In this document: piece by piece, positions 1,220 to 56,835 of the stretch
Numbering within the stretch: the first letter of the stretch is position 1
How the letters are laid out: every line of letters begins with the position of its first letter
Origin: Candidatus Omnitrophota bacterium
GTDB lineage: Bacteria > Omnitrophota > Gorgyraeia > Zapsychrales > Zapsychraceae
Direction of reading: 5' to 3'
Length of the DNA stretch: 64,000 bases
NCBI GenBank assembly: GCA_028280285.1
Contig: JANQMA010000013.1
Location: forward strand, 5,355 to 69,354
Position numbers and translations under genes: made by a program
Notes under the pieces: model-generated
Databases searched by the model: none
What the model was told of the DNA's origin: nothing
Seen by the model: only the letters and a program-made list of their open reading frames with translations

Positions 1220-1243
1220 TAATTAGTTTTTATTTTGGAAGGT

Positions 1244-1747: not shown

Positions 1748-1780
1748 AACCTCTCCTAGTACTACTAGAAGTATAATAGA

Positions 1781-2206: not shown

Positions 2207-2589
2207 TTGACCGCCCCTCCAATAAGATGCCCCAGGAAAATAGCCCCGATGCAAAGAACAAAATTAAGCAATATATTGAGAAAAGCCACAAACGCTTCTC
2301 CTTCGATAAAAAGATGATGTGTATCCCGCGAAAAACTAGAAAATGTTGTAAACCCGCCCAAAAGCCCAACAAACAAAAATAAATCAAGATTTTTAGGAAA
2401 CACTCCTTCTTTAATTAAAAAATATTCAAAGAAAAATCCAAACAAAAATGACCCGATAACATTAACCGTAAGCGTTGCGAGTGGAAAACCGGTTAATAGC
2501 GAAACCCGTGCCGCCACACAATTAACCCCGAAGCGCAAAATAGATCCGACAAATCCCCCACAGCCAACCGCAATAATATGCCCTATCAC
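2203..2589 (-). CDS. crcB: Fluoride ion channel CrcB/FluC
   Basis: 128 aa with four transmembrane helices and the hallmark GGFTTFSSF motif. Confidence 0.85.
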   Translation of the reverse strand: MIGHIIAVGCGGFVGSILRFGVNCVAARVSLLTGFPLATLTVNVIGSFLFGFFFEYFLIKEGVFPKNLDLFLFVGLLGGFTTFSSFSRDTHHLFIEGEAFVAFLNILLNFVLCIGAIFLGHLIGGAVK

Positions 2590-8353: not shown

Positions 8354-8851
8354 CTAATATTGGTTTTTGGCCAATTTACGCCTAAAGGCCGGCCAATAAT
8401 CTTCCCCTAATATATAACCTGTACAATTGTAGGACCCGCAGTGGCAGGGGTGATCCTCGTAACTATCGAGGTCATACCCGTAATTGTAGCTCAATTCCTC
8501 ACCTTTTTTGATGTCACGCAGAGCCACAATCCAGATTTTTCCCTTAATAATGTCTGATTCGCAATTAGGATCACAAGAATGGTTAATGTAACGGGCGGTA
8601 TTGTATTTGACATGCCCATCAATATCATGTTTTTTATTTAATGTAAAAATATAGACTGCACCCAGCTCAGGATTCTTTTTATTCTCCTCAAGAGGAATAT
8701 CTGCCCTTCTATCAGATTCCGCTTTCGTGATCCGCTCACCAACATATTCAATAATTTTGGTTCCTTCTTTAATATTCTTCTTGGCATAAATGCCAATGCC
8801 ATGAATATATGATTTTGAAACACGGATATACGGACTTGTTGTAGGCTTCAT
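8354..8851 (-). CDS. SET-domain protein (putative protein-lysine methyltransferase) with a post-SET Cys cluster
   Basis: Motifs IHGIGIYA (GxG), RYINHSCDPNC (NHSC), ELSYNYGY (ELxY/DYG) and post-SET HPCHCGSYNC. Confidence 0.8.
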   Translation of the reverse strand: MKPTTSPYIRVSKSYIHGIGIYAKKNIKEGTKIIEYVGERITKAESDRRADIPLEENKKNPELGAVYIFTLNKKHDIDGHVKYNTARYINHSCDPNCESDIIKGKIWIVALRDIKKGEELSYNYGYDLDSYEDHPCHCGSYNCTGYILGEDYWPAFRRKLAKNQY

Positions 8852-22933: not shown

Positions 22934-25900
22934 TTATAGCATAAGAGCTTGTTCAAGTGACTCTTCATGTCTGACATGCATACGATTCTTTTGGCCGTCA
23001 TTGAGGCCCAAGAGTTGCGGCAGGTTATTGATAGGCGTGATTTGAAGGACTTGTGGAATCAAGCCGGGGATTTCAATACTTTGCAGCTGGGCCGGATCAA
23101 TAGCAAAATCCAAATCAACACCAACCCCTTGGCTCTCTAATTCAAGGAAATCAGGGTTAAAGTCAATACCACCTTGTTTAAGATCTGAAATAGTAGCCTC
23201 ATCATTATGGGCCTTCGTCGGTGAACGGACAGCTATTTCAGGATATGGACTATCTTGTAGGTCCTTTTCAGTAACTTGTGGTAATCTTATTTCTATTTCG
23301 GTTCCAGTATTTTTATCTGATTGAATACTTAATTTTCCGCCATTTTTACTCACATCAAGATCAAGCGCTGCTAATCCCATGCCCGTTGCCTGCCCAAAAG
23401 AAACACGATACCAATTGCCATCCTCATCTTGAAAATCAGTTTCTTTATTATAAGAATAATGCAACACATTCTCAATGTCATCTGTGTCCATTCCGATTCC
23501 ATTATCTTTAATCTTAACAACTACTTCACTTGTTTTTTCATCAAAGGAGGCAGATAAACGCACCTTTCCTCTAACATGACTCCCTCCGTGTTTTTTGACA
23601 CGATCAGGATAAACGGCATTGAAACTGACATATTCTCCAGTTTCTTCAAAACCATCATTAATTTTTTTTAGCTTTTGTGCAGCAACAGCAAATTTACCAT
23701 TTCTTGTCGCCTGGATCAACGACGCTCTAAATCGTTTAGGGTGTGTTAAAATTGTTAACTTTTCCTCATCTTGAATATTAACTTCAATTTCCTCTACAGC
23801 ATCTGAACCGAGAAGTGACTCCATAGAATCAAAATCTCTGTTTGTGTGTACTATCTTATTTTTTGTGGATCTTAAAATATCTGCCAAGTTCACATGAGAA
23901 AGAATGAGACCATGACGTGTCCTTTCATCAATTGTCAGGGCTCTCATACGATCATATCGCTCCCCGATAAATCCACTCAGCCAATCAATTTTAGCCAAAA
24001 TATCTGAAACCTTTTTAAGGGTTCTCGGGTCGTCACTTAAATCAAACGAATCGCGCACACTATCCGTACTAGCCGCCTCAAAAGATTTTTTAAATGAAGG
24101 AAACCCTTCACTATTCGTAACATCTTCAGGTAACCCTTCTATCATTTTAGGCGTGATAACAGCTTTGATAAACCGCCTTAGTGCTTTCGCAGCAACCTCC
24201 TCATCACCTTTTCCAAAATGTTTTTTTCCATTTCGCAGATGCCTGTTAAATCGCCCACGATTAATATTATTGATAACCCAGTCTAAATTAGCCATTTTAC
24301 TTAGAGCAAAATCCGTTCCGACAATATCATCAAACTCCCCCCACAAAATACGCATTTGTCTGAAAATTTCCAGCATATCCTGCTGTAAGTAGATCGCGAG
24401 TGTCGCTTTTTCTAAAATACCCCCTTTGTGTGTAATTTCATAATCGTGCAAATAATCTGCATATGTTGCCGGATAGTATCTGCGCTTGATTAATTCCTCA
24501 TAAGCTGGCAAAGGCTGTTTGGACATATATTGAATCATAGCCCCGCCTGCAGTCTGCACCATTTGAAAAAATCGATCTAAACCATTCTTGCGCGCACTAC
24601 CGACTGTGCCGCCGCCAATAATAGCGATTTTTTTGCCTTTTTGACTATCCATAAACAAAAGAACCTTATCAATAAGAAGCGTATCGAACCTTCCCGTTGC
24701 AATTTCTTCATTAATCCGGTCTCTTGGGAAAGGTGGCACGACCTCTCCATTTTTCGCTATGAACTCTTCAAATAACACACGATTAAAAAAATCGATTCCC
24801 GCTTGAGGCACATTTACATACATAGCCGGCAAAAAGCTGTCTCCCTTCAGACCTATATACTCCTTTTTTTGATCTCGCTTATTAACCCCCGAAGGCCCAT
24901 TAAGAAGTCCGAAATTCAGATCCTTAATATTTTCTATATGCTCCCAAATAGCCTCAGGAGAAACCATATGGAATTTCCAATTATTTTCGACTTGTTCGCT
25001 AGGTCTGGCAATTCTAAAACTTGTTTCTACTAAATCATTCGGCGCAATCTTCTTGTCTTTAAATACCAGTGATTTCGGAAAATTTAACTTACTCCTGACA
25101 TCAGGATTTTTAATAAAAGCATCAATCGCGTGTTGTAAAAATTTGTCGCGATCACCTTCGTTTTTTACCCTAAAATCGATATTGCGCACAAATGGCGCTG
25201 AGCCTTCAACAGCATCCAATGCTTTATATAAAATAATCGCCGGCTGCCCGCCTAGAGGAAGATATTTCATGGTTGGTAAAGAACGCAAGTTTTGATACAT
25301 TAGAAACAATTTTTCTTTAATGCTCTTGTCACTTTTGCCATTTAACCAAGCGAACTCCAAAACATTCATATGCTCCTCAGCTTCCTTCATTTCCTTGGCC
25401 ATGACATAACCCATAACAGCGGGGGTGTCCTCATCTAAGCCCATTGAAGCATCGCGCCGATGGGCCGTTCCCATAGCATCTATAACATGTAAAACAGAAT
25501 GTTGAAGCAGTTTACGACGAAACTCCATATGCTTATCATAGGCATCCTCTAATTTATCAAGCCCCTTATAATAAACGGTAAAAAAATGAACAAGGGCACG
25601 ATATTGCTGAGTAAGATCGTTTGAGTCAAAATATTCAATATATTTCTCAAATGTTGAAGGCGCCAAATGCCTGACATGTCGAGGGATGTTTTCATTCCAC
25701 CTGTAGATATCGTTAAAAGCTCCTAAAACAAAACTTTGCGTCGATCTGATTTGATGCTCAAAATTAGAATTACTTTGCAGAATATTTTCATATATGTTAG
25801 TGAAAATTTTTATTCTATCCAGATTAAGCATATCTGATGGTAATGCTGCCCGGGCTTCTAATATATTTTTTTCAAACTCCTCTAGAGATTTTTCTAAGAT

Positions 25901-28900
25901 TTGCTCTTCCTCAATAAAACGTATATCTTCTCCCATAACAAGCTCGCCATTTTGCATTTCATTATGCATGAAATCTGCTATTTGATATGGTGCATGAACG
26001 CCTTCGAAAAAATGAACCTTTACTTCTTTACCCATCAACTCACTTAGCACCTTTTGCGCAAAAGGAGCAATAGGCCTATTTGTGTATTTTTCAAAATATT
26101 TCTTTTTAATCTCATCATATACGCGTCGCTTCTCCTCGAATCCTTCAGATTCGAACTCTTTAATCAATCTTTCATTTCTTTCTATTTCACCCAATACGTA
26201 TTCATAATGAGCACTCTCAATTCCCTTTTCCTTCATTTCTTTTGATATCTTTGTACGGTGGTTTTCAGCTTTTTGAGGATTTATATTTTCATTTTCCAAC
26301 GCCGTCTTTCTTTTATTTAATACCTTCCGCCTCTTTTGCAACATCGGCAAATAATCACGCATCTCTTTATTAATTTCATCTAAAGGCCTCCCATTATGAG
26401 AAATAACAAAAGCTTTGGCTCCGGCTTCCAGTGCCTGTTTAATTGTGGGTAAGGCAGCCATAAAACGCGCATCAGCATCAATTTTCCCGTTTTTCGCAAC
26501 ACCATTCAAATCGAGACGAATAGTAATAATCTTTCCTTCGATCACAATATTAGGAACATTTTTAAGCTCTAACGCCCTTAAGAGCTCATACAATGTCTTT
26601 TGCTCAAAAATATCTGAAATAGGCGTGGCACGCACATCTTCGCCAATATAGGCATCGATATAGATCTTTTCAATTTGCGCCTGAAGTTTTTTTACTTTAA
26701 GCAACCTTTTACTTGATTTTTCTAAGGACGACCAAGCACCATCTATTGCATCATTGTATCTTTTTCGAGCCTTTTTAAGTTGCCTCAGCAGCCCTCTTAC
26801 CTTACTTGTACCATTTAAAGCGACAAGCTGCTCTTCGCTTAAGGCTTCATTCAATTTATTGCGTTGCTGCAACTGTTCTTGCGTTAATTCATAAATATCA
26901 GATTCATAAACATTAGCCCGTTTTAATCGGTCTCTTAAAATGTCAATCGCCAAATTTCTCTCCGTCTCTTGAACATGCTCATCCGCCGTTAATTCTACAT
27001 ACTTTTTATTTTTCGCCTTGTCTGTATATTTTTGAAAGTAGACGCCATCCGCTGGACTAACAACCCGATACCCTTTTCTTTTAATCGTATCGGTAGCACC
27101 ATTAAAAATTCGGTAATCAATATGAAAAGGATAGCGCCCATGCTTGTGGCCGACGTGCTTGCCCGCCACCCCTTCTTCAGCCAAAATAGCATCAATTTCA
27201 TATGGCACGATCCAGGGCATATCGTTTGGATTAAAGGCACTTTTCCCATGCAAAGGTTTTCCCAATAATTTATTGCGCATATGCCATAAAGCTAAATTGT
27301 GACGCTCTTTAAGAGAAAATTGTTTTTTATAAAATTTAACTTCTATATCTTCAAGAGAATACCCCTCTTCGTCTTCCCTTAATTGAACAAGAGGTAAGGC
27401 CATTTTGTACCACTCATTAAATTTACTCACAAAACTATCAGGAATTTCATTCAGTGAATTATATTTTCCAAGCTCTTCGGCCAACTCTCTTTGAATTCTT
27501 AAAACATTCTCAATGGCTATCCGGTCATCCGGCTCATTAACATGTTTAGCCAAATCGCCATACACACTCTCCGTTGAAAACTCATGCGTATCTAAGATAA
27601 ACCGGGCAATTTCCAAAAGATTGATTTTGTTTCTATATTCTTCTTCATTCTCCGTTTTTTCAGGTTGTTTAAATTCCTTATTAAAGACAGCCGACATAAA
27701 ATCAAGTTCCTTGTTGCCGTGATTATAGTGTACTTTGAGCAAATCACGTGTTTCTTCATCATTAGCCATGACATGCAACTTTTGTAATGTGCGAAAGCTT
27801 CGAAAAATGGTTTCCGCCCTTTTTTCTTCAAACCTTGCTCTTTCTACCGGATCCTCAGTTATTTTATCTAAAGGGTAGTTATCCGGAATGGTAATATTAT
27901 CCCCATCCATAATAACTTCTGTTGGCAGACTCCCTTCTTGCTTTGCCATTTTTTGATCTTCTTCCAATATGTTACGCCGCACATGATTTAATACACCACG
28001 GGTAGGACGATACAAACTATGCCCATCTGAAAAAATAAACACCTCGCGAGCTTCGCCAGGACTAACTTGACTTATAACGCGATTAAAATCCTCTTCCATT
28101 TGTGGATGTTTAAAGCGAGGTTTATGCAATGATTGCCCGTTGGCATTACGCAATGTGACATATTTACGCGCCATTTTTTCACGATGGGCTGGAAGCGGCG
28201 GCATAACAACAGCATCATCACTCCGTTCATCTTTTTTCATCTGATAGCGCCCGGAAACCCGCATAAACTGATTGCTCAGTATATTGCGCGACAATTGGAC
28301 CGGCTCAAGGACGGCCGAATCATACGTACTGTGAGAAAGGCCGATGCCACCGGAGAAATATTTACGTGGCATGATTTGTTGGGAAGCAGGGTCGTACTCT
28401 TCTTTGATATAATCGTAAACGCCTTTGCGATAGGCTTGCAGATACTTTTGGTAAACCTCTTCTTTGGAATTTGGCGCGCCGCTTTCTAAGCCTTGGACCT
28501 TATTTTGGTCAGCGTATTTAGCGGTTAAAATTGAACTTTTAAGCTTGTCTTTATACCAAACCGCTAAGATAAACGAATGATAGATTTGACGTAATGCAGC
28601 GAAATGTTTGCCGCGATTAACCTCCTCTTCGATGATAGGCAAAATAACATCTTTCATCACATCTGTTGAAATCTGTGCAATTTTGGATGCGTCTAACTTG
28701 GAAGGATCATGACGCGTAGAATAATCTTCATGGGCATGAAAATAGGCAAAATAATCTTCTTCGGTCATTACCTTTAAATGGCTATAGGTAATAAAAGCCT
28801 TATTCCTATCTTCATAAATCTTGGCTGTCTCCGGTACGATCCAAATTTTGTTGTACGTATTTAATGGAATATCTGCCAAGCCGTGTTGTTGTTCAGCTCT

Positions 28901-29392
28901 TTGCCGGACTTTGTTCCAAAATTTTTGCCCTAATTCGCTTTCGGGGTAAGTTAAAGACGCACTTAATTGCTTTAAGAGATAATCTTGAAGCAACATATTA
29001 CGTCCAAACTCGGTTACTTCAAGCGTCTCGGTTATAATCCTGTCGTCCTCATATGGCGACAGGTTAACCCAGAGCTCTTCTTCGGGGACAGTTAAAGCGG
29101 CTAGAAAATATTTAATTAACTGTTCGGATTCTTTTGAAACATCAAGCTGCTTAAGATTTTCATCCCCAAGATTAAGAATAAAATCAAAAGCAAAGGGTTC
29201 GTTTGGATTTATAATAATTCCATTTAAGACAGGCGGATTATACGGTTGGCTGACTGAAACAAAAACCCCGGGGGCAGGAACAAATACCTCTTGAGCCGCA
29301 GCATAAGAAGCGAATATGGTTTCAAATAAAAATACCCCGGCTATAAATAAAGATAAAACTTGTTTAGAAATCCGTAAGCCCGGCATACCCAT
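22934..29392 (-). CDS. Giant secreted multidomain protein (about 2150 aa): shared N-terminal module, insertion-split phosphoglycerate-kinase-like fold, C-terminal GHKL ATPase domain, shared C-terminal tail
   Basis: Start reassigned to the internal [34 protein letters not shown] (signal peptide). The ORF-track start at 29443 would overlap the upstream giant gene by 80 nt. PGK-like motifs: [80 protein letters not shown]. GHKL motifs: KDNGIGMD and GQATGMGLA. Confidence 0.7.
   Translation of the reverse strand: [2152 protein letters not shown]
23279..23626 (-). other. GHKL/HATPase_c-like ATP-binding domain at the C-terminus of the giant ORF
   Basis: D-x-G-x-G ([10 protein letters not shown]) and G-x-G-x-G-L ([11 protein letters not shown]) boxes, ending in a [10 protein letters not shown] strand. 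Confidence 0.6.
24494..26566 (-). other. Phosphoglycerate-kinase-like fold embedded in the giant ORF (residues about 960-1650), interrupted by coiled-coil insertions of about 90-150 aa
   Basis: The order and spacing of the PGK signature blocks are preserved: R-x-D-x-N / ALPTI / SHxGRP; then SxAP...L.GKEV...RF..EE; then DAxGTAHR; then the IIGGG and TGGG loops. Confidence 0.6.
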
Positions 29393-32300
29393 CGGATATC
29401 TCACTTTCTCTAGTAGCAAGGTTAATTTTATGATTGGCTTCATACTCCTCGGATCTGTATCCTAATAATTCATAAATAGCCTCCTCATCATAAACTTCAT
29501 CTTTTGTTGTGCGGATCGGCGTCTGTTTAAAATCTTGTGTATTAAGCCCCAGCAGTTGCGGAAGATTAACAGGTGTAATATTTTGAATCACCGGAATAAA
29601 CCCTTTAAGATCAAGATAAATATCCGCCGGCTGCTGTGGTAAAGGCAGCGGCACCCCCTTACCATCACGCTTGATTTGCCATTCAAAGAGATCAGGGTTT
29701 AGGTTAATCCCGCCAAGATCGTCTTCTTGCTTTTGCATTGCCGCCTCATCAGCAGCTTCCTGCCCATATTCTTCTGCTGCCTGTGCGGCCATTTGTTCCA
29801 AACGCGCTTCTCTACGTAACGCTGCCAACTGTGCATTAAGCGGAATGTAAATGGTTTGCTCTTCTGTGCTTTGTTGAAAGGTAATATTCGGATCTTGCGA
29901 ATTAGTATCAACAATGTTCAACAAACTTTCAACATCGCCAAATACTTGATTGATAATATCTATACCGTCTTTTTCCAAGAGTGCTTCTCTCCGCTTAAAA
30001 TCATCGGTTAAATCAAGCCACCACGAGGCAACCCATGGCTCATAATACGGCCTGGATTTGATTTTAATTTGTTCCTTGGAATAAGCGTCCAATATGATTG
30101 TCTTGCGATCATCCGTGTTCGTTTTCATAACCTGGAGCATGCTTGACACAAACTCTCTGAACTCTTCAAGAGTAAGTTTTTCATAAAGATCTTTCCAGGT
30201 AACCTTAAAACTTTTCAAGGCCTGATAAATATCCCGTTCAACCCACACATTTTTATTGTCAGAAAGATTTTCTGCTTTAGCCGCTTCAATTAACGCCGCA
30301 AAACCGTGCTCATAATCAAAATTAGGCAAATCCGAATCCGCCTGCTCCTGAAGCATGGTTGCCCCCATCCTTCGGTCTAATGGATCAGCAGACTTAAGCA
30401 GCTCCCTTGGATCGCCTTCAGCTTCGATTCCTAGACGTAAGAAAATATCATCAACAGTAGCCTGATAATTTTCAAAATCCGGAATCGGCTGCCCTGGCTT
30501 TGAAAAATCATACGGAGCAAAGGCAGCAGCAAACTCGACTTCAGGAACATACGTAATCCCGTTGACCTCTATATGCTCGGAATAACCACTTGTTCTCGTT
30601 AAAAGCAACCGCAAGTCACGCTTAATTTCATTATCGAGAAATAGGTCAATTCTGACAGGAGGATTGCTAAAGTCCATATACCTCGGCCCAAGAATCGCGG
30701 CCTGTTTTACAATCTTAGGCGCCTGGTTGATAAACGGTTTAATAAACGCGTGTAAAATACGCGGATCGTTCGGCTCAACATAACTTTTTGACTCCCTGTC
30801 TCTTTCTTCTGGGTTCAACATATAAATTAATGCCTCAAACGCACTAACAGCAACCAGATCATTAGGCGACTCTGTTCTTTTAAATAAATAATCTAATAAT
30901 TCATTAGCATCAACATCCCTTTTAACAAGCAGCTCGATTTTCTCTCTAAAAATTTCGGGGTTAGTTTCAGAGTCTAAGCTATTAAGCAAATTTGTATCGA
31001 TAATATTTACTCCATCCGGCAAAACATCGAATCTATAATCTTTACGTTGTTTAATAAGCTCAACCCCCAGCATGCGCAGTTGATAATTAGGATGGTTTAT
31101 CATCTGTGCAATATCATCAATTGATCTTACATGAAGAAGAATTAACTCATTTAAGTCTCTAATCCTATCGATCCTTTGCCTATGCGGCCGGTCGCGGTTA
31201 ACATTGGCGCCTTCTTTTCCGACATTGCCATCCTGGCGGATTGTATCTCTCCTGCGCACTCCGCCCCCTCTTTCAAAATGCGTCATCCCTAAAGTTGCTT
31301 TATAACGTATATCCTGATTGCCCTCTTCTTCGTATTCCACTGCTTGGCCAACATTTGGAAAAAAGATATCATTCCATATCCTGAGTTTTTGATATAAAGC
31401 AGCCTTCCTGTTAACTACCGCCTCTCCTGATATACGCGCATCTGAATCATTTTCTAAATCATCGATTTCCCTTACAATCTTTTGAGCATAACCCAGAATC
31501 AAATCGAACATTTTGGTGCGTACTTCGACATTTTCATGTTCCGTTCCCTTATGCACAGCTTCTAGCATATCTCGTTCTTCTTGTGTATTATCAGCCAGCC
31601 ATGCCTTTTCCATAAGAATGGCAGCCGGTATATCCGCACGAGGATCAGTATCATCTGCTGTTCTACGACTGAGCACCTCTTTAGCCGGATTACCTTCCAT
31701 GGCCCCCAAAAGACCAAAAACCTCCTCACGAACAAATGATGGGAAATCTTTATGCGTTGCGCCAACTAAATCATCCGATAAAACACCACTTTTAAATGCA
31801 TCATTGACCATACGATCAAAACTAACCTCTTTATCATCTGCATTTAAAAAATTTCGCGCTATTGTTTCTTTTCGATCTTCATCTCGCACAATTGTATTCC
31901 ATAGATCGGCCGATATACGTAACTCTCTTTCAATATTAAGCAACTCCTCGCCCGCCAAAGGAGTCGGATATAAATTAATCAGTGATTCTGGATTAAGCAC
32001 AGCTAATTGTTTACGTAACTCTCTTCTAACATCTACATTAGCATTATTAAGTGCTTGTTCTCCTAGACGCTCATATCGCTCCAATAAATCTATGATGTAG
32101 GAATAAATATCCTGGCGTTGATCTTTAGCTGTTTTGGCCATCTGACTCAGCGCTCTGATATAACGGATTTGTTGGGGGGTTGCTTCAGGCCCTTTAGTTT
32201 GGGATGCCTTTATGACTCCTCTTTCTATAGCCTCAACATCTATTTTATTCGCAATCCAGTTGATTAAATCAATCGTCCGCCCCTCTACTGAAACATCCTT

Positions 32301-35300
32301 AAGCGTCCCTTCAAACTCAACAGGAGCTAAATTATACTGAAACGCATCATATATGGCGTCTCTGGCCGGCTTATCGAATGCATCTTGTCCCATTTTTTTA
32401 AATTCGCGGTCAATGAGATCTTTAAGACTGTTTGTTTCGCGTGTGGGTGGCTCCTGATTAAGCTTGCGTCTTACCTGGCCAAGCGCCTGAATAGCCTGCA
32501 TCTGTGCTGTTCCATATCTTGCAATACGGATATAAGTCAAAACTGTTTCGCGCTGTTTGCCATACTCAATATCTTTGGCACCGCTGCCGAAAAATACATC
32601 CGCCAAAACATTAAGCGCATCAACATCCCCCATAGCTCCTAACTGGCTAAAATGATGCGCAACATTGGAAAGCTCCCCGGAGGCGATGTCAGCAAAAGTA
32701 ATGCCTTTTGGTTGATACCCGTATCTCTTCAGCCCTCCACGAGCAATATCACGTGTAACAGGATCGTTATTTTGCGTATAGGAAAGAAGCATGACAATCC
32801 GTCTTTGCTTTTGCCGTTCTGTCATATCTGCGTGAGGCGGTTCAGCCATCATCGATGCCATAAACTGATTAAAACTGCGTGCATCAAGACTTCTGATCCT
32901 CTTGCGTGCCTCAAGCAATTTTCTTTTGTTAACCCCTAACTCGGAAAAAACGATATCGTAAAACAGTTTAAACCCAACCGATCTTGGATCAATAAATTCG
33001 GTTGAAATATAACTTGCCAGTAAATGTTCCGCCCCCGCATTAAAAAGCGCCGAATAATAGGTCTGATCCTCCATGCGGTCTAACGCCAGACCAAAAGAAT
33101 TAAGATACAGTAAGCTCTCTTTATCTTGTAGCCCCTTAGCTCTAGCTTGCGCCAATTGATAAATAGCATTTTCAATTATGCTTGTTGTGCCACGCAAGAC
33201 CCGCATAGAAAGAGTTGGGTTATATTCACGGTGTTTTTTCACCAGTGCTTTTTGTGATAAACGCCAATCATTTTCCGTATGAAGCCGGTAGGCCTGTGCG
33301 GCCCTTTCTCTAACCAGTGGATCGGAGTCCCACATCGCATCAATCAAAGCCTGTTTGGCTACCGCCCCACGTACATACGCCAGACGCGTCACCGCCTCGA
33401 TTCTATACTGAACCTTTTCATGTAGCGTTGCAATGCGGGCTAACAATTCCCGCGCCGGTTTACGTACCGGCCTTGCCAATAAACGTGCAGTGCTTACGGC
33501 AAGCCCATAATTTAAATTATCGAGTTCTAACTCATATTCACCTTCAACCCGCACCCAGGGATTGCTCGGAAGGCCTGGCGCAGCAATCGGTCTGGTTATG
33601 TCAATCGTAAAATCTCTCCCTGAAAAGATGAATGATTCGCGGTCTAGATCTGCCCCGCGCAAATTGAGTTCAAAACGCAGACGCTCATGAGCTCTGTCCG
33701 ATAAGGTAGCAACCGTTGCATATCTAGATAATGTTTTTCTATCTCGGTCATAAATCCAATAGGAATCATTCGACATAAACAAAAGCGCGTCGAATGCAGC
33801 CTCAACCTCAATATCATTGTCTGCTCTATTATTGAGCAAAAACCGTTCAATGCCCTCAAAATTAGCCGCTCTTTTACCCTTTATAAATAAAAACGACTCA
33901 CTACGAAGCCCTGAAATCCTTAAGGCCTGAGCAACGGCAAAAGGACTATTACTTTTCTCAATGGTTTCGATCAGAAGCCTGCTGGTATTTTTAGTACGCG
34001 AGCGTTCTAACCATTTACTCACAATCCTTTTTATTGTCTCATTTGTCCCCCCAAGCAAATCAATCAGTCCGCGGACAATGCTTTCGTCTAAATCATTTTT
34101 TGGAAAGAGCTCTGTATATCTTTCAAGCCAGGCATCAGCATACTCCGCAGATTGCGGCCGGTCGCGCATGGCATTGACCATAACAATCGCCGCTTGCCTG
34201 CCTTTTTCTCTGGCCGCATCAGGATTCGCTTTATATGCTTCTTGAAATAATCTATCTAATTCAATTAACTCTTTCAGCGTTTTAGAATCATTTTTTGTCC
34301 GTAAATACTCCTCGATATTATCTTGTGCAATCAAGCTGTCGACATCTGTTATTTCTTCTCTCTGCTGGTAAATTTCCAAATCCCTTGGAGCCGCTTCAAG
34401 AGCCGAACCTCCCGCTACAGCCGTCGCGACAGCAAGCTTGGCGGCCACCGCACCACTTTTTGCGCTTTTTAACAAGCCTGTTATTGCTGCAGCATCAGAA
34501 GCACCGATGAGCTCATTAGCTCTGCTTTCAAGCTCCTTCTTATTATATTTATAGTCTCCTTTATCTTCTCCCTGCTCAGGAAGCTTAATAAAAACGTCTT
34601 CTGTCAGTTTTTGGAACATATAAATAATCAAGTTCTCATAAATATAATAAAAGTCATCCCCGGCCAGCTCCGATAAAAAGACTCGTGTTTTCCCTTTATC
34701 TAAACGGAAATTCGCAAGCCCCATTTTTTCAAACGGTATTTTGGACGCCACTTCCTGCATATGTCGGACTTTTTTTAAATCACTTTCCTCAACATCCTCA
34801 AAATCTTCTTTTTTGAGACTATCCGGAGATTCAATGTCAAAAACTTCAAGCAATAGACGCCCGGCCTCTTCGGTGCCCACATTAACCAGGGCCCTGGCCG
34901 CCATAAGCGTATAAATCATTTTTTCGAAATCAAAAAATGCAATTGTTCCGTTTGGCAAAAGATACTTGCGATAAATCGGCACAAGCCAATTTAAATTGCT
35001 TATCTGTGGGCTTTTGGACTGACGAAAGGATTCATGATAATTTTTGTACTTGCCCGGCGTTTGCGTAAAATAATCGGCAAAATATTGATAAACGGTCTCG
35101 ACTCTACTTGTCTTATTGTCAATTTTCCTGTCAACCACACTCCAAAGCTCTTCGCTTCTTTTATCGATTAATTCATCAAATTTTTCCCGTATGAGTTTAT
35201 CATTATCTTGATCTTTTTTCTTAAACAATCCCCTGATGCTGCGTAATATCCTCTCGACTTCCGCATCTCTCTGTTCACTTAAAACAGGCTCTCTTAGCTC

Positions 35301-38300
35301 CGTTCTTCTCACACCCACACGAGCCGATCTATCCCTTCGCGACCTAATATTAGCCACAAGGTTGTCCTCTTTTGTTTTTTTACGGTTAAAATATCTATTA
35401 ACCAAAATCTTTTGATCTTGCAGTTTTTTAATTGTTTTAAGAAGACTGAGCAGCCACCTACTTTTTTTATCTTTCGCTTTAACAATATTCTCAATAATTT
35501 TTTTTGGTAGTTTTTTTGGATAATTCGCTTCAATTTTTTCAATAAATTTTCGTTTGGCAGCACCACTAAAGCTCTTGCGATAACCCCAAACGAGAACTCC
35601 ACTTAAAAGAAGCACCGTGATCATAGTAGGCACAGTATTTTTAAAAACCTCTTCATTATATGCTTTAGCCTTTAGCCAGCTTTGAAATACAGGATCCCCG
35701 CTGGCGTCCGGGTACACAGAAACAAAGGCCAATAATTCCCCATCTGTTTTAAACTGTTCAGGCTCACTTTTGGCAATCGCCAATATATCCGCATAAAACT
35801 CTTTGATCCTTTGCTCACTGTTTGCCTCTAGGCTATGTAACAGTGTGGTCACATCTTCAATCATGGGTGTCAGTCCCATAGGCTGAATATGCATGTGAAG
35901 ACGAGTAAGGGCTTTACGCTCTTCAACCGGAAGCCTTATGTACGCCTTAAGGTACGCAGCATGCATGTCCTCTTTTTTGACATCTGTATTCTTAAAATAA
36001 TACTCCTTCGCCATCCACAAATAATCATTAAGATCCTCATTGTCGGTTCTTGGCGCTTTCTCAGCCAAAACATAATTTGTTTTAAAAGCCTCTCTGCGCA
36101 CACGAGGCGATTCATGTAAAGTGAACTCAAGCACTAAAGTAAATAACGTTTTATCTCCCAGCTGTTTGATAGCCTCTAAAACATAAAAAGCAAAGGTATT
36201 TCTTCTATCAAGAACATCACGCTTGACATCGGATTGCCGATAAAACCTGAGGATCCCGGAAAGACTGTCTTGCGCTGCAACAGGAAGCGGAACGCGATAC
36301 AACCCGATAATAGAAAAATAGGCAATAAGTATGGCAACGGCAATGCCAACACCTATCATGGTAATTCTTTGTATCGAATCAAGGGTTAAGTCCCAACTCC
36401 TATCCCCTTCGTTGCGTTCATTTATTTTGTTAAATTTTTTGTTTGTTTTTACTTTACTTCTCCAATCACGAAACCTTTTCCATTGCCGTCCGGGCCATTG
36501 CCATAAGGTTGCTAAAGCAGATAGCATAGCATTATCCTTAGTTGGCGGCTTCTCATGCAGACTTTCATCGATATCGCGTAAAATATTGACTAATTGTAAT
36601 TGTTGAGAGCGCTCAGGTACTTCTACAATTGTGGCAATAGTTATATCTTGATCAGTTTTTTTTGATTGAGCCTCCGACTCAGTATTAGCCTGTCCTTTTT
36701 GTTTTTTATCAAAATCAATCTGGTCAATTATCCCTTGTATCTCGGTCGCCCCCCCTGTCACGATCATAAAAATAGTCTTTTCCGATTCCATCATCCTAAG
36801 TAATTGCCCGGAGACAGTATCTTGAGAGCTTATTTGATTTTTTTTCTTAAAAACCTGCAGCTGTGCGAGTGTTGTTGCACGTTGAGGATAAATGTATTCA
36901 ATACGTTCAATCCCAAATCGGTTAAACACTTCCGCTGTATATTGAACGGCATTGGCTGGAATAACTAATAATGTCTTGGACCCATCAGCAATGCCGTTAT
37001 AATGACCTTCTGTAAACCCCTTTTCTTTATAAAACGTTTCATGAAATGCAAATTGATTTTTAACCTTTTGCCAAATCGCCAACTCCTCAAAATAGCGCGC
37101 TTTATCTTCCACATCACCTTCTATAGCTTGAGGGATTACATCGACAAATCTTTGAATATCCATTGAATTGACGCGCATTCGTAACGCAAGGAGTGCAACT
37201 GCCTTTCTTTCTTCATAGGTAAGTGAACCATAATAATCCGTCAAGATTTCATAAACCAGGCCATTTAAAAAGTCTCTTAATTCGGTATCAGTCTCTAAAT
37301 CAACTGCGGATTTGCCCGTTTGCTGTTCATACTGTTGCAGCTCCTCGGCCGTGGACTCCCATCGGGTAAGATTGGTGAAGATATCATTGAGCTCTGTATC
37401 AAGTATCATATTCTGAGCGGCTAGATACTCCATAAGCGGCATAAGTGCAGGAACAACAATAGACTTAAGCTGTACCCCGACAGCTTCCACACCTTCTTTT
37501 TGTTTATCCAGTGTTTGATTTTTTTGCAGAACATTAACCAAATTGATAAGATATCCAGACATTGACAAATTATCCGCCGCCCCCTCAATAATGAGATTTT
37601 CAACAAGCTCATGCGGAAGGCGCGCCTTGTACCTGCCTGTCTTTTCTTCAAAACTCAAATCCCTTGAATCCTGTGGAACAAGAAATTCCCCCAGGCTTGG
37701 GGTGCCCAATACAATAAAGGCTGTCATAAGCGTTGCATTTGCTAATGTAAGGCGTATAGAAGCCCCGTACACAAACCGATAAAGCCAACTTTTTTCTTCA
37801 ACCACCGGGCGAGATCTGACATAAAAAGCCCCTAAAAAAAGTACAATTAACGCTCCAATGACAACGGAAACTGTTCCTGCCCTTATATCTTCTTTAAGGG
37901 TTTTAATTATTTTGAAAAAAAACACGTCTGTATTATTGGACATCCACCTCCCGTAACTGTTTTCAAACCAGTACATCGAACTTATCGCTTTATATACAAA
38001 TCCGTCTCTTAATGCAGCTGTTCTACTTTGGTTTTTAATATTTTGCTCCTCAGCGGCTATGCGCTGCCTTGTCAGTCGTTTAAAATTCTCTAACCTTTCT
38101 TCGTCACTTAAGCCATTGTCAGGTTTATTTTTGAGCAATTTATCTGAAAATACCCACATTTCATCTTTGACTGCCTTTCTAAGATCATTGGAAGGCCGCC
38201 GCAATAATTCCACGGTTTTTTGTAAAGCCTTTGGGTCAACCCCTCTGGCATACTCCTGTCTAAAAGCAAGATTAGAAATAACATTCTTCACAACAGGATC

Positions 38301-40049
38301 CGTCAGATCTGATACCGATTCGTCACGCGCAATCATTGGATGAAAAGCATCCATCGCCGACTGAAAATATTCCGTTTGCTCCTCTGTAAAGTCATCATAA
38401 GTTAGATTATTGTATAAAGTAATCGACTTTTGTCTTTTCTCAAGAAGCTCCGCATAAATATCAACTTCTTCATATTGAGGTGGATTGGTAATAGCCTTAT
38501 GCGGGTAAGCTATAAAAGAAAGCGCACCCCAAGCACTAGCTAGCGCAACTAACACACTTCCGACAAGATAAGCAGGTGTTAATGCAAATCGTTTTACCTT
38601 TCTTGGCCTATCTACAACCGCATTATCAACTTCGTTTTTTTCTTCAGGCGCCGTAACTTCAATAACTTCCTGTATCGGCTCAACATCTAGATCAGCCTTT
38701 TTGATTTCCTGAAATTTTTCTTCAGCAGTTTTATTCTCAGGTGCATCGTTACTTTGCCAACTCATACGCACCTGTGTATTAATATCCAGCGATGCTGTTC
38801 CTTTTTTGCCCCCATTATCTTTTGTCACCTCAACCAGGCGGGTGTTGACGCGCGAAACATTTTCATCGCTTTGGGCAAAGCTAAATTTTTGCCCCCAATT
38901 CAAATTATCAAAATCCGTTTCAATCCGGACATTGGTATCCCCAAACGCAGGATTGGCCAGCGCCTGCAAATCAAGCCCGCCAGAGAAGTATTTCCGTGCC
39001 ACAATTTCCTGTTTTTGCGGATTGTACTCTTCCCTGATCAAATCAAAGACGCCTTGCTTAAACCCTTCAAGGTAGTGATCATAAATCTTCCGGCTGATTT
39101 GCTTGTCTTCTGTATCAACGCCTTCTGTTTTGCCGCGATCCACATAAAGCTGACTTAATAAACTCGTCTTAAGCTTTTTCTTATACCAGCCGGCAAGGAC
39201 CAAAGAATGAACAATCTGTCTTAATGACGCGAATGCCTCGCCATGGTTGATCTCATGCTCAATTTCCGGAATAATCACTGCGCGGACAATATCAGAAATG
39301 TTGGATGCCGCCGGCTCATCGCTAAGCCGGGCATGATTGGTATTTTTATCCGAGACCACATAATCTTCTTCCAGCATGGCCTTAAGCGTGCATTCAACCA
39401 CATAGGCGCTTGTGCCGTCCTCATAGATCGTTGCTTTATCGGGGACAATCCACACCTTATTAAAGGCATTGACCGGCATATTTTGATCACCGTATTGAGC
39501 GTGAATGCGTTCGTTGATACGCTCCCAAAGTTTGGCGCCAATCGAATCGGTTGTGTCATCCGGATACATCAAAGAGGCTGTCATCTGCTTAAGGACATAA
39601 TCCTGAGCCAGCACATCGCGCCCCATCAATGTATCGCCAAAAGAATCGGCAATGATGCGATCAGGCTCATCGGGCGAAAGGTTGACCCATAACTCGTTTT
39701 CGGGAATGGTTAGTGAGGCAAGAAAGTATTTGATTAACTTTTTGGCTTCGGCTTGAAAGCCTTGATCATTATTAAAATTAGTATCTCCATGATCAATAAT
39801 AAAATCAAGCTCCAAAGGATTTTCCGGATGGACGATCACGCCACGCATGAACATCGGTGTCATCGGGGCAGACTGAGTCATCATTTCCCCGACAGGAGGC
39901 AGTTTTAACACATGCGCTGGTTGTGGAACAGGAAGGCTTTGGGCCTGGGCATACTCAGGGCCAATAATTGACTGCACACCAAAGGTAAGCAGCAAAATAT
40001 AAACAATCCCCTTAAAAGAAATACTTTTTTTGTGATTTTGGAATAACAT
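29364..40049 (-). CDS. Giant (3561 aa) signal-peptide-bearing, multi-pass membrane alpha-solenoid protein; shares N-terminal module and C-terminal tail with the downstream giant ORF
   Basis: Signal peptide MLFQNHKKSISFKGIVYILLLTFGVQSIIG. At least 5 hydrophobic transmembrane-like helices are scattered through the protein (e.g. LVGSVLVALASAWGALSFIAY, TVSVVIGALIVLFLGAFYV, MIGVGIAVAILIAYFSIIGLY, TMITVLLLSGVLVWGY). It carries HEAT/PBS-type repeats (DSDPLVRERAAQAY) and is predominantly helical. No catalytic motif recognised. Confidence 0.7.
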   Translation of the reverse strand: MLFQNHKKSISFKGIVYILLLTFGVQSIIGPEYAQAQSLPVPQPAHVLKLPPVGEMMTQSAPMTPMFMRGVIVHPENPLELDFIIDHGDTNFNNDQGFQAEAKKLIKYFLASLTIPENELWVNLSPDEPDRIIADSFGDTLMGRDVLAQDYVLKQMTASLMYPDDTTDSIGAKLWERINERIHAQYGDQNMPVNAFNKVWIVPDKATIYEDGTSAYVVECTLKAMLEEDYVVSDKNTNHARLSDEPAASNISDIVRAVIIPEIEHEINHGEAFASLRQIVHSLVLAGWYKKKLKTSLLSQLYVDRGKTEGVDTEDKQISRKIYDHYLEGFKQGVFDLIREEYNPQKQEIVARKYFSGGLDLQALANPAFGDTNVRIETDFDNLNWGQKFSFAQSDENVSRVNTRLVEVTKDNGGKKGTASLDINTQVRMSWQSNDAPENKTAEEKFQEIKKADLDVEPIQEVIEVTAPEEKNEVDNAVVDRPRKVKRFALTPAYLVGSVLVALASAWGALSFIAYPHKAITNPPQYEEVDIYAELLEKRQKSITLYNNLTYDDFTEEQTEYFQSAMDAFHPMIARDESVSDLTDPVVKNVISNLAFRQEYARGVDPKALQKTVELLRRPSNDLRKAVKDEMWVFSDKLLKNKPDNGLSDEERLENFKRLTRQRIAAEEQNIKNQSRTAALRDGFVYKAISSMYWFENSYGRWMSNNTDVFFFKIIKTLKEDIRAGTVSVVIGALIVLFLGAFYVRSRPVVEEKSWLYRFVYGASIRLTLANATLMTAFIVLGTPSLGEFLVPQDSRDLSFEEKTGRYKARLPHELVENLIIEGAADNLSMSGYLINLVNVLQKNQTLDKQKEGVEAVGVQLKSIVVPALMPLMEYLAAQNMILDTELNDIFTNLTRWESTAEELQQYEQQTGKSAVDLETDTELRDFLNGLVYEILTDYYGSLTYEERKAVALLALRMRVNSMDIQRFVDVIPQAIEGDVEDKARYFEELAIWQKVKNQFAFHETFYKEKGFTEGHYNGIADGSKTLLVIPANAVQYTAEVFNRFGIERIEYIYPQRATTLAQLQVFKKKNQISSQDTVSGQLLRMMESEKTIFMIVTGGATEIQGIIDQIDFDKKQKGQANTESEAQSKKTDQDITIATIVEVPERSQQLQLVNILRDIDESLHEKPPTKDNAMLSALATLWQWPGRQWKRFRDWRSKVKTNKKFNKINERNEGDRSWDLTLDSIQRITMIGVGIAVAILIAYFSIIGLYRVPLPVAAQDSLSGILRFYRQSDVKRDVLDRRNTFAFYVLEAIKQLGDKTLFTLVLEFTLHESPRVRREAFKTNYVLAEKAPRTDNEDLNDYLWMAKEYYFKNTDVKKEDMHAAYLKAYIRLPVEERKALTRLHMHIQPMGLTPMIEDVTTLLHSLEANSEQRIKEFYADILAIAKSEPEQFKTDGELLAFVSVYPDASGDPVFQSWLKAKAYNEEVFKNTVPTMITVLLLSGVLVWGYRKSFSGAAKRKFIEKIEANYPKKLPKKIIENIVKAKDKKSRWLLSLLKTIKKLQDQKILVNRYFNRKKTKEDNLVANIRSRRDRSARVGVRRTELREPVLSEQRDAEVERILRSIRGLFKKKDQDNDKLIREKFDELIDKRSEELWSVVDRKIDNKTSRVETVYQYFADYFTQTPGKYKNYHESFRQSKSPQISNLNWLVPIYRKYLLPNGTIAFFDFEKMIYTLMAARALVNVGTEEAGRLLLEVFDIESPDSLKKEDFEDVEESDLKKVRHMQEVASKIPFEKMGLANFRLDKGKTRVFLSELAGDDFYYIYENLIIYMFQKLTEDVFIKLPEQGEDKGDYKYNKKELESRANELIGASDAAAITGLLKSAKSGAVAAKLAVATAVAGGSALEAAPRDLEIYQQREEITDVDSLIAQDNIEEYLRTKNDSKTLKELIELDRLFQEAYKANPDAAREKGRQAAIVMVNAMRDRPQSAEYADAWLERYTELFPKNDLDESIVRGLIDLLGGTNETIKRIVSKWLERSRTKNTSRLLIETIEKSNSPFAVAQALRISGLRSESFLFIKGKRAANFEGIERFLLNNRADNDIEVEAAFDALLFMSNDSYWIYDRDRKTLSRYATVATLSDRAHERLRFELNLRGADLDRESFIFSGRDFTIDITRPIAAPGLPSNPWVRVEGEYELELDNLNYGLAVSTARLLARPVRKPARELLARIATLHEKVQYRIEAVTRLAYVRGAVAKQALIDAMWDSDPLVRERAAQAYRLHTENDWRLSQKALVKKHREYNPTLSMRVLRGTTSIIENAIYQLAQARAKGLQDKESLLYLNSFGLALDRMEDQTYYSALFNAGAEHLLASYISTEFIDPRSVGFKLFYDIVFSELGVNKRKLLEARKRIRSLDARSFNQFMASMMAEPPHADMTERQKQRRIVMLLSYTQNNDPVTRDIARGGLKRYGYQPKGITFADIASGELSNVAHHFSQLGAMGDVDALNVLADVFFGSGAKDIEYGKQRETVLTYIRIARYGTAQMQAIQALGQVRRKLNQEPPTRETNSLKDLIDREFKKMGQDAFDKPARDAIYDAFQYNLAPVEFEGTLKDVSVEGRTIDLINWIANKIDVEAIERGVIKASQTKGPEATPQQIRYIRALSQMAKTAKDQRQDIYSYIIDLLERYERLGEQALNNANVDVRRELRKQLAVLNPESLINLYPTPLAGEELLNIERELRISADLWNTIVRDEDRKETIARNFLNADDKEVSFDRMVNDAFKSGVLSDDLVGATHKDFPSFVREEVFGLLGAMEGNPAKEVLSRRTADDTDPRADIPAAILMEKAWLADNTQEERDMLEAVHKGTEHENVEVRTKMFDLILGYAQKIVREIDDLENDSDARISGEAVVNRKAALYQKLRIWNDIFFPNVGQAVEYEEEGNQDIRYKATLGMTHFERGGGVRRRDTIRQDGNVGKEGANVNRDRPHRQRIDRIRDLNELILLHVRSIDDIAQMINHPNYQLRMLGVELIKQRKDYRFDVLPDGVNIIDTNLLNSLDSETNPEIFREKIELLVKRDVDANELLDYLFKRTESPNDLVAVSAFEALIYMLNPEERDRESKSYVEPNDPRILHAFIKPFINQAPKIVKQAAILGPRYMDFSNPPVRIDLFLDNEIKRDLRLLLTRTSGYSEHIEVNGITYVPEVEFAAAFAPYDFSKPGQPIPDFENYQATVDDIFLRLGIEAEGDPRELLKSADPLDRRMGATMLQEQADSDLPNFDYEHGFAALIEAAKAENLSDNKNVWVERDIYQALKSFKVTWKDLYEKLTLEEFREFVSSMLQVMKTNTDDRKTIILDAYSKEQIKIKSRPYYEPWVASWWLDLTDDFKRREALLEKDGIDIINQVFGDVESLLNIVDTNSQDPNITFQQSTEEQTIYIPLNAQLAALRREARLEQMAAQAAEEYGQEAADEAAMQKQEDDLGGINLNPDLFEWQIKRDGKGVPLPLPQQPADIYLDLKGFIPVIQNITPVNLPQLLGLNTQDFKQTPIRTTKDEVYDEEAIYELLGYRSEEYEANHKINLATRESEISDGYAGLTDF

Positions 40050-52706: not shown

Positions 52707-52920
52707 TTATTCTTCCACTGGAAATTTATCGATAAATGTCACTGTAAATTGTGCAATTAACGCCGCATCCAGAGCATTGATTCTTCCGTCACCGCTTACA
52801 TCCGCACGCACTTGCGCATCCGGATCAAGCGTAATGAATGTAACGGTATGCTGCGCCGTTAATGCCGCATCAAGCGCATTAATTGTTCCATTATTATTGA
52901 CATCGCCATAAGCGATATCG
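52707..52920 (-). other. Dockerin module (two 22-residue F-hand segments)
   Basis: GDVNNNGTINALDAALTAQHTVTFITLDPDAQVRADVSGDGRINALDAALIAQFTVTFI. Confidence 0.8.
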
Positions 52921-56766: not shown

Positions 56767-56835
56767 AAGATGTCGTTATCACAGTTGTCTACCCTTGGAA
56801 ACTCAAACACAAAGTATTTGAATAAAACAGGATTA

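Follow-up and report, generated by a model that had tools for sequence, protein, structure and literature searches.

Two adjacent giant proteins of an Omnitrophota bacterium belong to a large, previously unnamed family with conserved ends around exchangeable cargo

Omnitrophota are widespread, uncultured and ultra-small bacteria that are suspected to be predators or parasites, and the many long proteins encoded by their genomes are largely unexplained. A stretch of 64,000 nucleotides (nt) from a Candidatus Omnitrophota bacterium (assembly GCA_028280285.1, contig JANQMA010000013.1, positions 5,355 to 69,354; its full length is referred to here as the window) gives this puzzle a concrete form, as it carries on its minus strand a tandem pair of giant open reading frames (ORFs), P2 and P1, with related beginnings and related ends: what are these common ends, and what do they do with the parts that lie between them? 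A reading of the window from its sequence alone had located the pair at 22934-40049, exactly where the ORF list places it; the length assigned to P2 (3561 amino acids) was accurate, while the figure of about 2150 for P1 has to be raised to 2,169 (Table 1).

That the two proteins combine a common head and a common tail with unrelated interiors, as the sequence-only reading proposed, is borne out by BLASTP, in which 145 of 336 positions of the N-terminal head are identical (43%; E 2e-82; P1 residues 47-369 versus P2 residues 33-361), as are 28 of 60 positions of the C-terminal tail (47%; E 2e-9; P1 2091-2148 versus P2 3446-3503), and besides these no match between P1 and P2 falls below an E value of about 1. 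The similarity at both ends withstood a shuffled-sequence control, with Smith-Waterman scores of 737 for the head against 37 +/- 5 in shuffles (z = 131) and of 119 for the tail against 28 +/- 5 (z = 18); for the interiors the score was 53 against 59 +/- 8 (z = -0.8). No third copy of head or tail was found in the window by tblastn with both modules as queries. As to the interiors, PGK and GHKL matches in P1, and four to five hydrophobic segments together with a HEAT_2 match in P2, agree with the PGK-like plus GHKL and transmembrane (TM) alpha-solenoid contents first read from the sequence. The PGK homologue of P1 is complete but heavily expanded, with four blocks that align to the Thermotoga maritima enzyme 1vpe, and it retains the RxDxN, SHxGRP and DAxGTAHR motifs, the GGGD motif being altered to GGG-T; the GHKL domain also matches NCBIfam histidine-kinase models and the PDB kinases SrrB and YycG. 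Searches of PDB sequences with the whole of P2 and with the C-terminal third of P1 returned marginal or GHKL matches only.

The arrangement is not peculiar to the two window genes. The head of P1 has 459 homologues at 46-57% identity, none of which carries a Pfam annotation, and the named ones derive nearly all from metagenome-assembled genomes (MAGs) of Candidatus Omnitrophota or Omnitrophica, with several per MAG. A hidden Markov model (HMM) of the head, built from alignment A3, picks up both P1 and P2. A scan of one genome per GTDB species with the head yielded at least 589 confirmed matches, and 78 loci were taken for gene analysis. Among the best 80 of these matches, most are titled Omnitrophota or Omnitrophica MAGs, including Candidatus Aceula; the others bear the titles 'uncultured Planctomycetales', 'Planctomycetales bacterium' or simply 'bacterium', and one is assigned to Ca. 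Elulimicrobium; up to 8 loci come from a single MAG among the head matches listed. Head genes also occur on IMG/VR contigs (L080, L081, L082) or under the labels Pacearchaeota, Heimdallarchaeota, Ca. Elulimicrobium (Patescibacteria group) and Planctomycetales (P0009, P0026 and L060 among them). Such genes with a non-Omnitrophota or viral label are probably mis-binned or mislabelled Omnitrophota DNA, and the family appears to be restricted to this phylum.

A search of metagenomic protein sets for the tail, which had been recommended along with the original observation, was made: a profile of 13 tail sequences scored against 1.84 billion cluster representatives gave 4,765 matches at E <= 1e-3 and 2,024 at E <= 1e-10. 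Lengths of tail-bearing proteins were taken from this exhaustive search and range from fragments up to 4,763 residues (a plain homologue search with the tail gave short fragments only and evidently favours short proteins, and the lengths from it and from the homologue search with the P1 head were left unused). In all of the best 150 tail matches the tail ends 0-48 residues before the C-terminus, the extension of 58 residues in P2 being slightly longer. When the head HMM was applied to the same 150 proteins, 55 of the 58 with at least 820 residues were seen to open with a head or a 5'-truncated head; shorter head-less tail proteins are without a signal peptide and resemble N-terminally truncated gene calls. 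Conversely, 75 headed ORFs in the 78 loci are complete at both ends, and 59 of them carry a tail of subtype A and five one of subtype B (see below), in six the tail is encoded by the ORF that comes directly after, as if the gene had been split or frameshifted, and five have none; most headed ORFs that at first seemed tailless proved, on recheck, to end in subtype B or to be followed by an ORF with the tail. Of the 78 loci, 25 contain at least two family genes, which invariably share a strand and are frequently separated by less than 100 nt. P1 and P2 show this arrangement: counted from its first ATG, P1 extends 80 nt into the end of P2 (29 nt from a possible alternative start, M18 at 29392), so that the genes are tightly tandem. 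The architecture of head, variable cargo and tail thus holds across the whole family and beyond the pair from which it was first proposed, and the near-absence of cysteine, a head directly after the N-terminal hydrophobic signal and a tail within about 60 residues of the C-terminus are all found in both P1 and P2.

Some observations on individual members may be added here. A minimal one, P0046 (500 residues), consists of a signal, a head, a 66-residue linker and a tail. At the other extreme, about 10 of 78 headed ORFs run more than 3,690 residues past the locus end (in L006, L014, L015, L019, L020, L026, L035, L042 and L058 among others), and L019 and L058 have giants in tandem. Some of the truly giant Omnitrophota ORFs of the literature may open with the head too; their N-terminal regions are, according to West-Roberts 2023 (10.1101/2023.11.21.568195), without identifiable domains. 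A tail-bearing fragment of 311 residues, P0135, has a partial second tail copy directly upstream of the first (residues 186-225 and 234-303); it is the sole case of two tail stretches that was checked, and P0272 is also listed with two.

The tails of P1 and P2 represent distinct subtypes of one tail family, in which at least two subtypes exist, that of P2 containing the canonical 'IKRDGKGVPLPLPQQ' and that of P1 tending towards 'IDPAQLQ'. Subtype A, to which P2 belongs, follows the pattern 'LQIKRDGKGVPLPLPQQ...PVIINI.PV.NLP.LLG', and subtype B, found in loci L029, L030, L039, L040 and L041, the pattern 'G.GIKFH.DPA.LQ..NAPGFT..SITI.PLKS..FLG'; the P1 tail is intermediate and leans towards B (73.5 bits with the tail-A HMM, 83.2 bits with the tail-B HMM). 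For 12 of 16 subtype-B members the nearest head is that of another subtype-B member, against 2.1 expected.

What lies between these ends was compared among 115 full-length members (6,305 pairs), in which heads average 52% and tails 48% identity and cargo homology was detected in less than 1% of pairs. Even where heads are 70-85% and tails 75-95% identical, the cargos are unrelated and of different length: P0202 and P0225 are 77% identical in the head, 95% in the tail and 0% in the cargo, and the two paralogues within locus L077 show a like pattern (77%, 89% and 0%). An edge of such a replacement can be recognised in P0210 and P0264 (head 85%, tail 89%), where about 90 residues after the head are retained at 89% identity before the similarity breaks off abruptly. 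The interiors of P1 and P2 likewise had no match among the approximately 270 family proteins with which they were compared. Judged from these alignments, head and tail keep about 50% identity throughout the phylum, cargo is replaced wholesale by recombination, not diverged, and head and tail are inherited together; the tail subtype follows the head sub-lineage and the middle is replaced, which means that head and tail travel together.

Cargo ranges in length from 66 to more than 4,500 residues (median 887), and most of it has no Pfam match. The matches that are present are cytoplasmic-type enzymes and regulators, including a full-length phosphoglucose isomerase (PGI) in P0264 (residues 1471-1962, free of cysteine; E 7.8e-195) and a full-length PGK in L068 of Ca. 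Aceula lacicola (3e-102), PGK being present in 3 of 27 members scanned. Further domains found as cargo are pyruvate phosphate dikinase (PPDK), phosphoglucomutase (PGM), UDP-glucose pyrophosphorylase (UDPGP), starch synthase, CofD, CheR-type methyltransferases and one receiver domain.

In line with the initial impression that neither conserved module is a named family, no match was found for head or tail in Pfam (2025), NCBIfam (2026), PDB sequences or PDB folds (for the tail with cut-offs of E <= 0.01 in Pfam and E <= 0.1 in NCBIfam), and the Pfam and NCBIfam matches within P1 and P2 are confined to the cargo (PGK, GHKL, HEAT). A search of PDB sequences with the head profile (hmmsearch) retrieved nothing, and the head structure, whose prediction had been asked for earlier, was modelled for P1 with AlphaFold2 (AF2) at a predicted local distance difference test (pLDDT) score of 70.5 and gave a best E value of 0.26 with Foldseek against PDB; rows for ClyA, MakE and MakB were weak (TM-score <= 0.16) and were dismissed as noise. 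An AF2 model of P0046 reached a pLDDT of 80-95 in the head core and a predicted TM-score (pTM) of 0.70, and both models contain two long beta-hairpins and several long helices. About 45 positions of the head are invariant or nearly so, with WVNLSPxE, QDYxLKQ, FNKVWIVP, NxxxxFxxLRQ and RKYFSGG as motifs. Two origins for the modules were rejected by hhalign, namely an internal duplication of the head (first versus second half, probability 3.8%) and homology of the tail to the head end (probability 0.3%). Two Gly-Gly motifs bracket the cargo, [RK][KR][YF]F[ST]GG at the head end in 108 of the 115 members, where it is predicted to be disordered, and GGI[DN][LFMI] at the tail start in 109 (P1 residues 362-366 and 2091-2095; P2 residues 354-358 and 3446-3450). 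These motifs (YFSGG, GGIDLN) are candidate recognition, processing or cleavage sites.

With regard to where these proteins reside, the prediction that both giants open with a signal peptide was supported by a positively charged n-region, a hydrophobic stretch and a predicted A-x-A↓Q site in each. The same holds for the family, in which N-termini have several Lys or Arg residues followed by a strongly hydrophobic core, and a small-x-Ala↓Gln site is present in 69 of the 115 members at a median position of 37, just ahead of a conserved LPxPGxMV motif. No TM-like segment is seen in 97 of the 115 cargos, P2 being in the minority that has one. A second line of evidence comes from composition. P1 has no cysteine in 2,169 residues and P2 one in 3,561; 59 family representatives have 60 in 84,977 residues, mostly within the signal peptide, and in the GTDB loci cysteine amounts to 0.074% of the family proteins (165,954 residues) versus 1.13% of 495 neighbouring ORFs, a depletion of about 15-fold. 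Among those neighbours, long cytoplasmic proteins have 1-1.7% cysteine and proteins with a signal peptide 0.1-0.6%, and in the window cytoplasmic enzymes have 0.8-3% and the upstream signal-peptide surface proteins about 0. Bacteria without Dsb oxidoreductases avoid cysteine in their exported proteomes, and it is likewise avoided in autotransporter passengers, TpsA proteins and other substrates whose passage through a membrane requires an unfolded chain. From the signal-peptide-like N-termini and the exclusion of cysteine, we therefore infer that the family proteins, enzyme cargos included, leave the cytoplasm.

On the whole, P1 and P2 are tandem members of a very large, lineage-specific and unnamed Omnitrophota family, and it appears moderately probable that head and tail serve in it as export, anchoring or assembly modules around recombination-swapped cargo. 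A family protein comprises a predicted Sec-type signal peptide, a head of about 330 residues, an exchangeable cargo, a tail of about 65 residues and a short variable extension. Under this proposal, the signal peptide would take an unfolded, cysteine-free chain through Sec and be cut at A-x-A↓Q, and head and tail would act as generic handling modules by which a common partner recognises, holds or anchors whatever lies between them. Any cargo could in this way reach one destination outside the cytoplasm, be it the periplasm, a coat on the outer-membrane surface or a prey or host cell, and might there be kept or anchored in the envelope, passed on to an outer-membrane or delivery system, or assembled. 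The cargo would then supply the variable function, and its variety would arise through recombination that takes place between the conserved ends or adjacent to them.

Several observations weigh against this proposal. The dedicated export or sorting pathway of the sequence-only reading found no support, as no secretion, sorting or outer-membrane partner gene recurs near family genes in the 78 loci (746 ORFs clustered) or lies in the window. Signal peptides were called by simple sequence rules. Many cargos (PGK, PPDK, GHKL, CheR, receiver) need ATP, S-adenosylmethionine (SAM) or phosphoryl donors, which are not expected outside the cytoplasm, and this creates a paradox with the inferred export; the Nielsen 2026 preprint (10.64898/2026.06.07.730766) met the same paradox of metabolic domains in signal-peptide giant proteins of Omnitrophota. 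In addition, hydrophobic segments interrupt the cargo of P2, as they do in about 16% of members, and the charged flanks of the first two in P2 fit an orientation opposite to that of a periplasmic head.

A bolder version of the export proposal, which can be put forward tentatively and is in our opinion possible rather than probable, is that head and tail are the paired signals of an undescribed, Omnitrophota-specific secretion or delivery route for whole enzymes and regulators that are normally cytoplasmic. Just as tentatively, PGK, PGI, PPDK, phosphoglucomutase, GHKL ATPases and receiver domains might be moved by such a route into the cytoplasm of prey or host, or into an energised extracytoplasmic compartment or coat, where they would rewire or harvest metabolism, their recombination being cassette-like.

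Among the alternatives, one in which head and tail are complementary docking modules fares best, although we regard it as unlikely. Here the tail of one protein would bind the head of another or a common scaffold, in the manner of cohesin and dockerin or of donor-strand exchange, and dozens of paralogues would build a multi-enzyme surface layer or 'coat', the modules serving assembly and not transport. Such docking would suit the strict co-occurrence of head and tail and the tracking of head sub-lineage by tail subtype, but shared descent alone can explain that co-variation. The tail has the size of a dockerin (about 65 residues), and the window has genes for a true cohesin-dockerin surface system immediately upstream, yet neither dockerin nor cohesin shows homology to the modules. 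In the P0046 model the tail start forms a beta-hairpin with a pLDDT of 79-90 despite the 80-residue disordered linker before it, which, together with the pTM value, hints that it may pack against the head; many paralogues per genome, often in tandem, would also fit an assembly. How ATP-dependent enzymes come to be displayed outside the cell is left unexplained by docking.

A less probable alternative concerns the signal peptide itself, in that the N-terminal hydrophobic stretch may be an uncleaved anchor, or may not be inserted at all, and the proteins would be cytoplasmic and tethered to the inner membrane as a scaffold for housekeeping enzymes (PGK, PGI, PPDK) and regulators. In its favour, the cargos are typical cytoplasmic enzymes, some of them full-length and apparently intact; moreover, neighbouring genes encode cytoplasmic signalling proteins (histidine kinases, response regulators, GGDEF and EAL proteins), the charges around the first two hydrophobic segments of P2 fit a cytoplasmic N-terminal side, and most long Omnitrophota proteins are membrane-anchored according to the 2026 preprint (10.64898/2026.06.07.730766). 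On the other hand, the Lys/Arg-rich n-region, hydrophobic core and A-x-A↓Q site place the body of the protein outside by the positive-inside rule, the 15-fold depletion of cysteine resembles proteins with a signal peptide and not cytoplasmic neighbours, and 84% of members have no other hydrophobic segment.

It is more doubtful still that the head is an enzyme or processes itself, with cleavage or ligation at the Gly-Gly motifs as one conceivable means to release or attach cargo. Many of its roughly 45 invariant or near-invariant residues within 330 are polar (N, S, E, D, K, Q, R, Y), the cargo is bracketed by a GG pair that is invariant on either side, where the head finishes and where the tail starts, and the disorder predicted for the head-end motif is that of a linear site; however, no Cys or His is invariant, no peptidase or transferase family or fold was matched, and on inspection the motif departs from the consensus of double-glycine leaders. 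Finally, chance, low complexity or an artefact of assembly or annotation is ruled out, with hardly any residual doubt, by the shuffling results for head and tail and by thousands of independent homologues in metagenomes and MAGs.

The coordinates of the parts of the two window genes are collected in Table 1.

Table 1. Parts of the two giant genes and their positions in the window
Feature	Residues	Position (strand)	Basis and remarks
P2, head-cargo-tail protein	3,561 aa	29364..40049 (-)	ORF list, translation, BLASTP; stop codon 29364-29366
P2 predicted Sec-type signal peptide	1-36	39942..40049 (-)	Heuristic; Lys-rich n-region, hydrophobic aa 12-30, A-x-A↓Q site (...YAQA↓QS)
P2 head module	37-365	38955..39941 (-)	BLASTP E 2e-82 versus P1; head HMM match
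P2 cargo	366-3445	29715..38954 (-)	Kyte-Doolittle scan, Pfam
P2 cargo hydrophobic segments	488-513, 726-744, 762-787 (weaker), 1232-1250, 1472-1490		Kyte-Doolittle
P2 cargo HEAT_2	2187-2254		Pfam 2e-6
P2 tail module, subtype A	3446-3503	29541..29714 (-)	GGINLNPDLFEWQIKRDGKGVPLPLPQQ...ITPVNLPQLLGLN; BLASTP E 2e-9; tail HMM 95 bits
P2 variable acidic extension after the tail	58 aa	29367..29540 (-)	Translation
P1, head-cargo-tail protein	2,169 aa, counted from first ATG	22934..29443 (-)	ORF list, translation
P1 predicted signal peptide	up to 50/51	29294..29443 (-)	Heuristic; ...YAAA↓QE
P1 head module	51-369	28337..29293 (-)	BLASTP, 459 homologues, AF2 model
P1 cargo, without hydrophobic segment	370-2090	23174..28336 (-)
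P1 PGK homologue, split by large insertions	about 962-1650	24494..26560 (-)	Pfam PGK 6.7e-27
P1 GHKL (HATPase_c) domain	1951-2056	23276..23593 (-)	Pfam 1.1e-9
P1 tail module, leaning to subtype B	2091-2148	23000..23173 (-)	GGIDFNPDFLELE...IDPAQLQSIEIPGLIPQVLQITPINNLPQLLGLN; ends 21 aa before stop

The genes that surround the pair are of two kinds. Directly downstream of P1 (17728-22817) lie a HAMP histidine kinase, an AHSA1-like protein, a methyltransferase, a response regulator and a GGDEF cyclase; across the 78 loci the commonest neighbours are response regulator-EAL phosphodiesterases (10 loci), an ABC-F ATPase (8) and HAMP histidine kinases (5), with glycosyltransferases as another top cluster. 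Directly upstream are cohesin/He_PIG giants, an LTD-dockerin protein, a porin and an LTD-CotH protein. The segment 40271-55334 (-) contains three paralogous He_PIG/Big_9/Cadherin-like surface proteins (1,278, 1,581 and 1,275 residues), two of them with an N-terminal cohesin, followed by a protein with five LTD domains that ends in a type I dockerin (ORF 52707-55334). The set resembles a cohesin-dockerin surface system, here in an Omnitrophota genome; cysteine is entirely absent from the three giants and occurs twice in the LTD-dockerin protein. A Porin_5-family porin and a 1,185-residue LTD, CHB_HEX_C and CotH-kinase protein with a signal peptide are encoded at 55492-60393 (-), and a 165-residue SET-domain protein (Pfam SET, 4.6e-27), here in a bacterial genome, at 8354-8851 (-). 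Among window ORFs of at least 150 residues that are not nested in a longer minus-strand ORF, all but one (61459-62088) are on the minus strand. Scans of the window (1-64000) for tRNA genes and Rfam families were empty, and a promoter and terminator scan around P1 and P2 gave counts at chance level. The window also matches a Logan assembly contig of run SRR20820735.

As for what may be gained from this family, the head and tail profiles provide two sequence handles that pick out thousands of such proteins, and the exclusion of cysteine is a compositional marker that argues for their exit from the cytoplasm. The puzzle of long Omnitrophota proteins is thereby turned into testable questions concerning glycolytic and signalling cargo, the partners of head and tail, cleavage at Gly-Gly and the destination of the cargo. 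If the modules were export or delivery signals, they would define a new bacterial protein-sorting system together with a catalogue of its cargo, and if they served assembly, a novel means by which a cell constructs a coat of enzymes; either way, head and tail merit family models in Pfam or InterPro.

It remains to compare the family with systems already described. Kinship with the families named earlier for comparison, those with type IX secretion system (T9SS) C-terminal domains, PEP-CTERM and RHS proteins, found no support, as the tail is without T9SS-CTD or PEP-CTERM features, RHS repeats are lacking and the variable part is internal and not C-terminal. Cargo of the T9SS of Bacteroidota does resemble the family, since cargo of many kinds follows a Sec signal at the N-terminus and many paralogues per genome have one small C-terminal domain in common, and T9SS machinery need not adjoin its cargo genes. 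However, T9SS cargo lacks a large conserved N-terminal domain and belongs to a different phylum, the family tail is followed by a variable extension of 0-58 residues, neither tail has a Pfam or NCBIfam match to a Por_Secre_tail/TIGR04183-type C-terminal domain, and no T9SS gene (PorK/L/M/N, SprA, PorU/V) lies within the window. As regards PEP-CTERM, P1 and P2 have no hydrophobic segment at the C-terminus, their ends are polar or acidic, and no NCBIfam match was obtained.

Polymorphic toxins such as Rhs and CdiA (Zhang et al. 2012, PMC3482391) likewise combine conserved trafficking parts with modules replaced by recombination, and form large families with giants that are often in tandem; module replacement among close relatives is seen in the present family as well (heads 70-85% and tails 75-95% identical, no cargo homology). 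They differ in that here the variable part is internal with both ends conserved, and the cargos are metabolic, regulatory or unannotated, with no recognised toxins. P1 and P2 contain no RHS or filamentous-haemagglutinin repeats, and no immunity-like gene lies downstream, where a histidine kinase is found instead. TpsA proteins of two-partner secretion are very long, cysteine-poor exported proteins with a conserved domain of about 250-330 residues directly behind the signal peptide, but they have no conserved tail, and their TPS domain is a beta-helix, whereas long helices in an alpha/beta arrangement are predicted for the family head; it has no Haemagg_act match, and no TpsB (Omp85/POTRA) gene occurs in the window or among the recurrent neighbours of the 78 loci. 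The mycobacterial PE/PPE proteins are comparable as a lineage-restricted, greatly expanded family with a conserved N-terminal export domain and a highly variable remainder, although they are exported by the type VII secretion system without a Sec signal, have unrelated folds and lack a conserved C-terminal module. In cellulosomal enzymes many catalytic cargos bear one small conserved C-terminal module, the dockerin, that plugs into a common structure, but there is no conserved head, and the family tail is not a dockerin: no PF00404 match was found in P1 or P2 with the same library that detects the real dockerin in ORF 52707-55334.

Closest in phylogenetic terms are the Omnitrophota giants ('Archaeovorins', West-Roberts et al. 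2023, bioRxiv 10.1101/2023.11.21.568195; Nielsen 2026), which belong to the same phylum, are long ORFs with signal peptides and/or TM helices, and have HEAT repeats, GHKL, methyltransferase and sugar-metabolism domains and adjoining cyclic di-GMP signalling genes. The Archaeovorin combination of TM helices and HEAT repeats has a counterpart in P2 only, with its hydrophobic segments and HEAT_2 match; in size, P1 and P2 fall far short of the Archaeovorins, and Pfam detects neither SecA-like (SecA-DEAD) nor C39/S8 peptidase domains in them. Term searches of accessible papers on long proteins of Omnitrophota (West-Roberts 2023, Nielsen 2026, Seymour 2023, Williams 2021) found no description of head and tail modules, cargo swapping or cysteine exclusion. 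In conclusion, the design works like that of T9SS cargo, TpsA proteins and polymorphic toxins and yet fails the defining sequence and fold tests of each, and P1 and P2 are members of a real, previously unnamed family that is set apart from all three by the conservation of both ends around an internal variable region and by the metabolic enzymes that this region carries.

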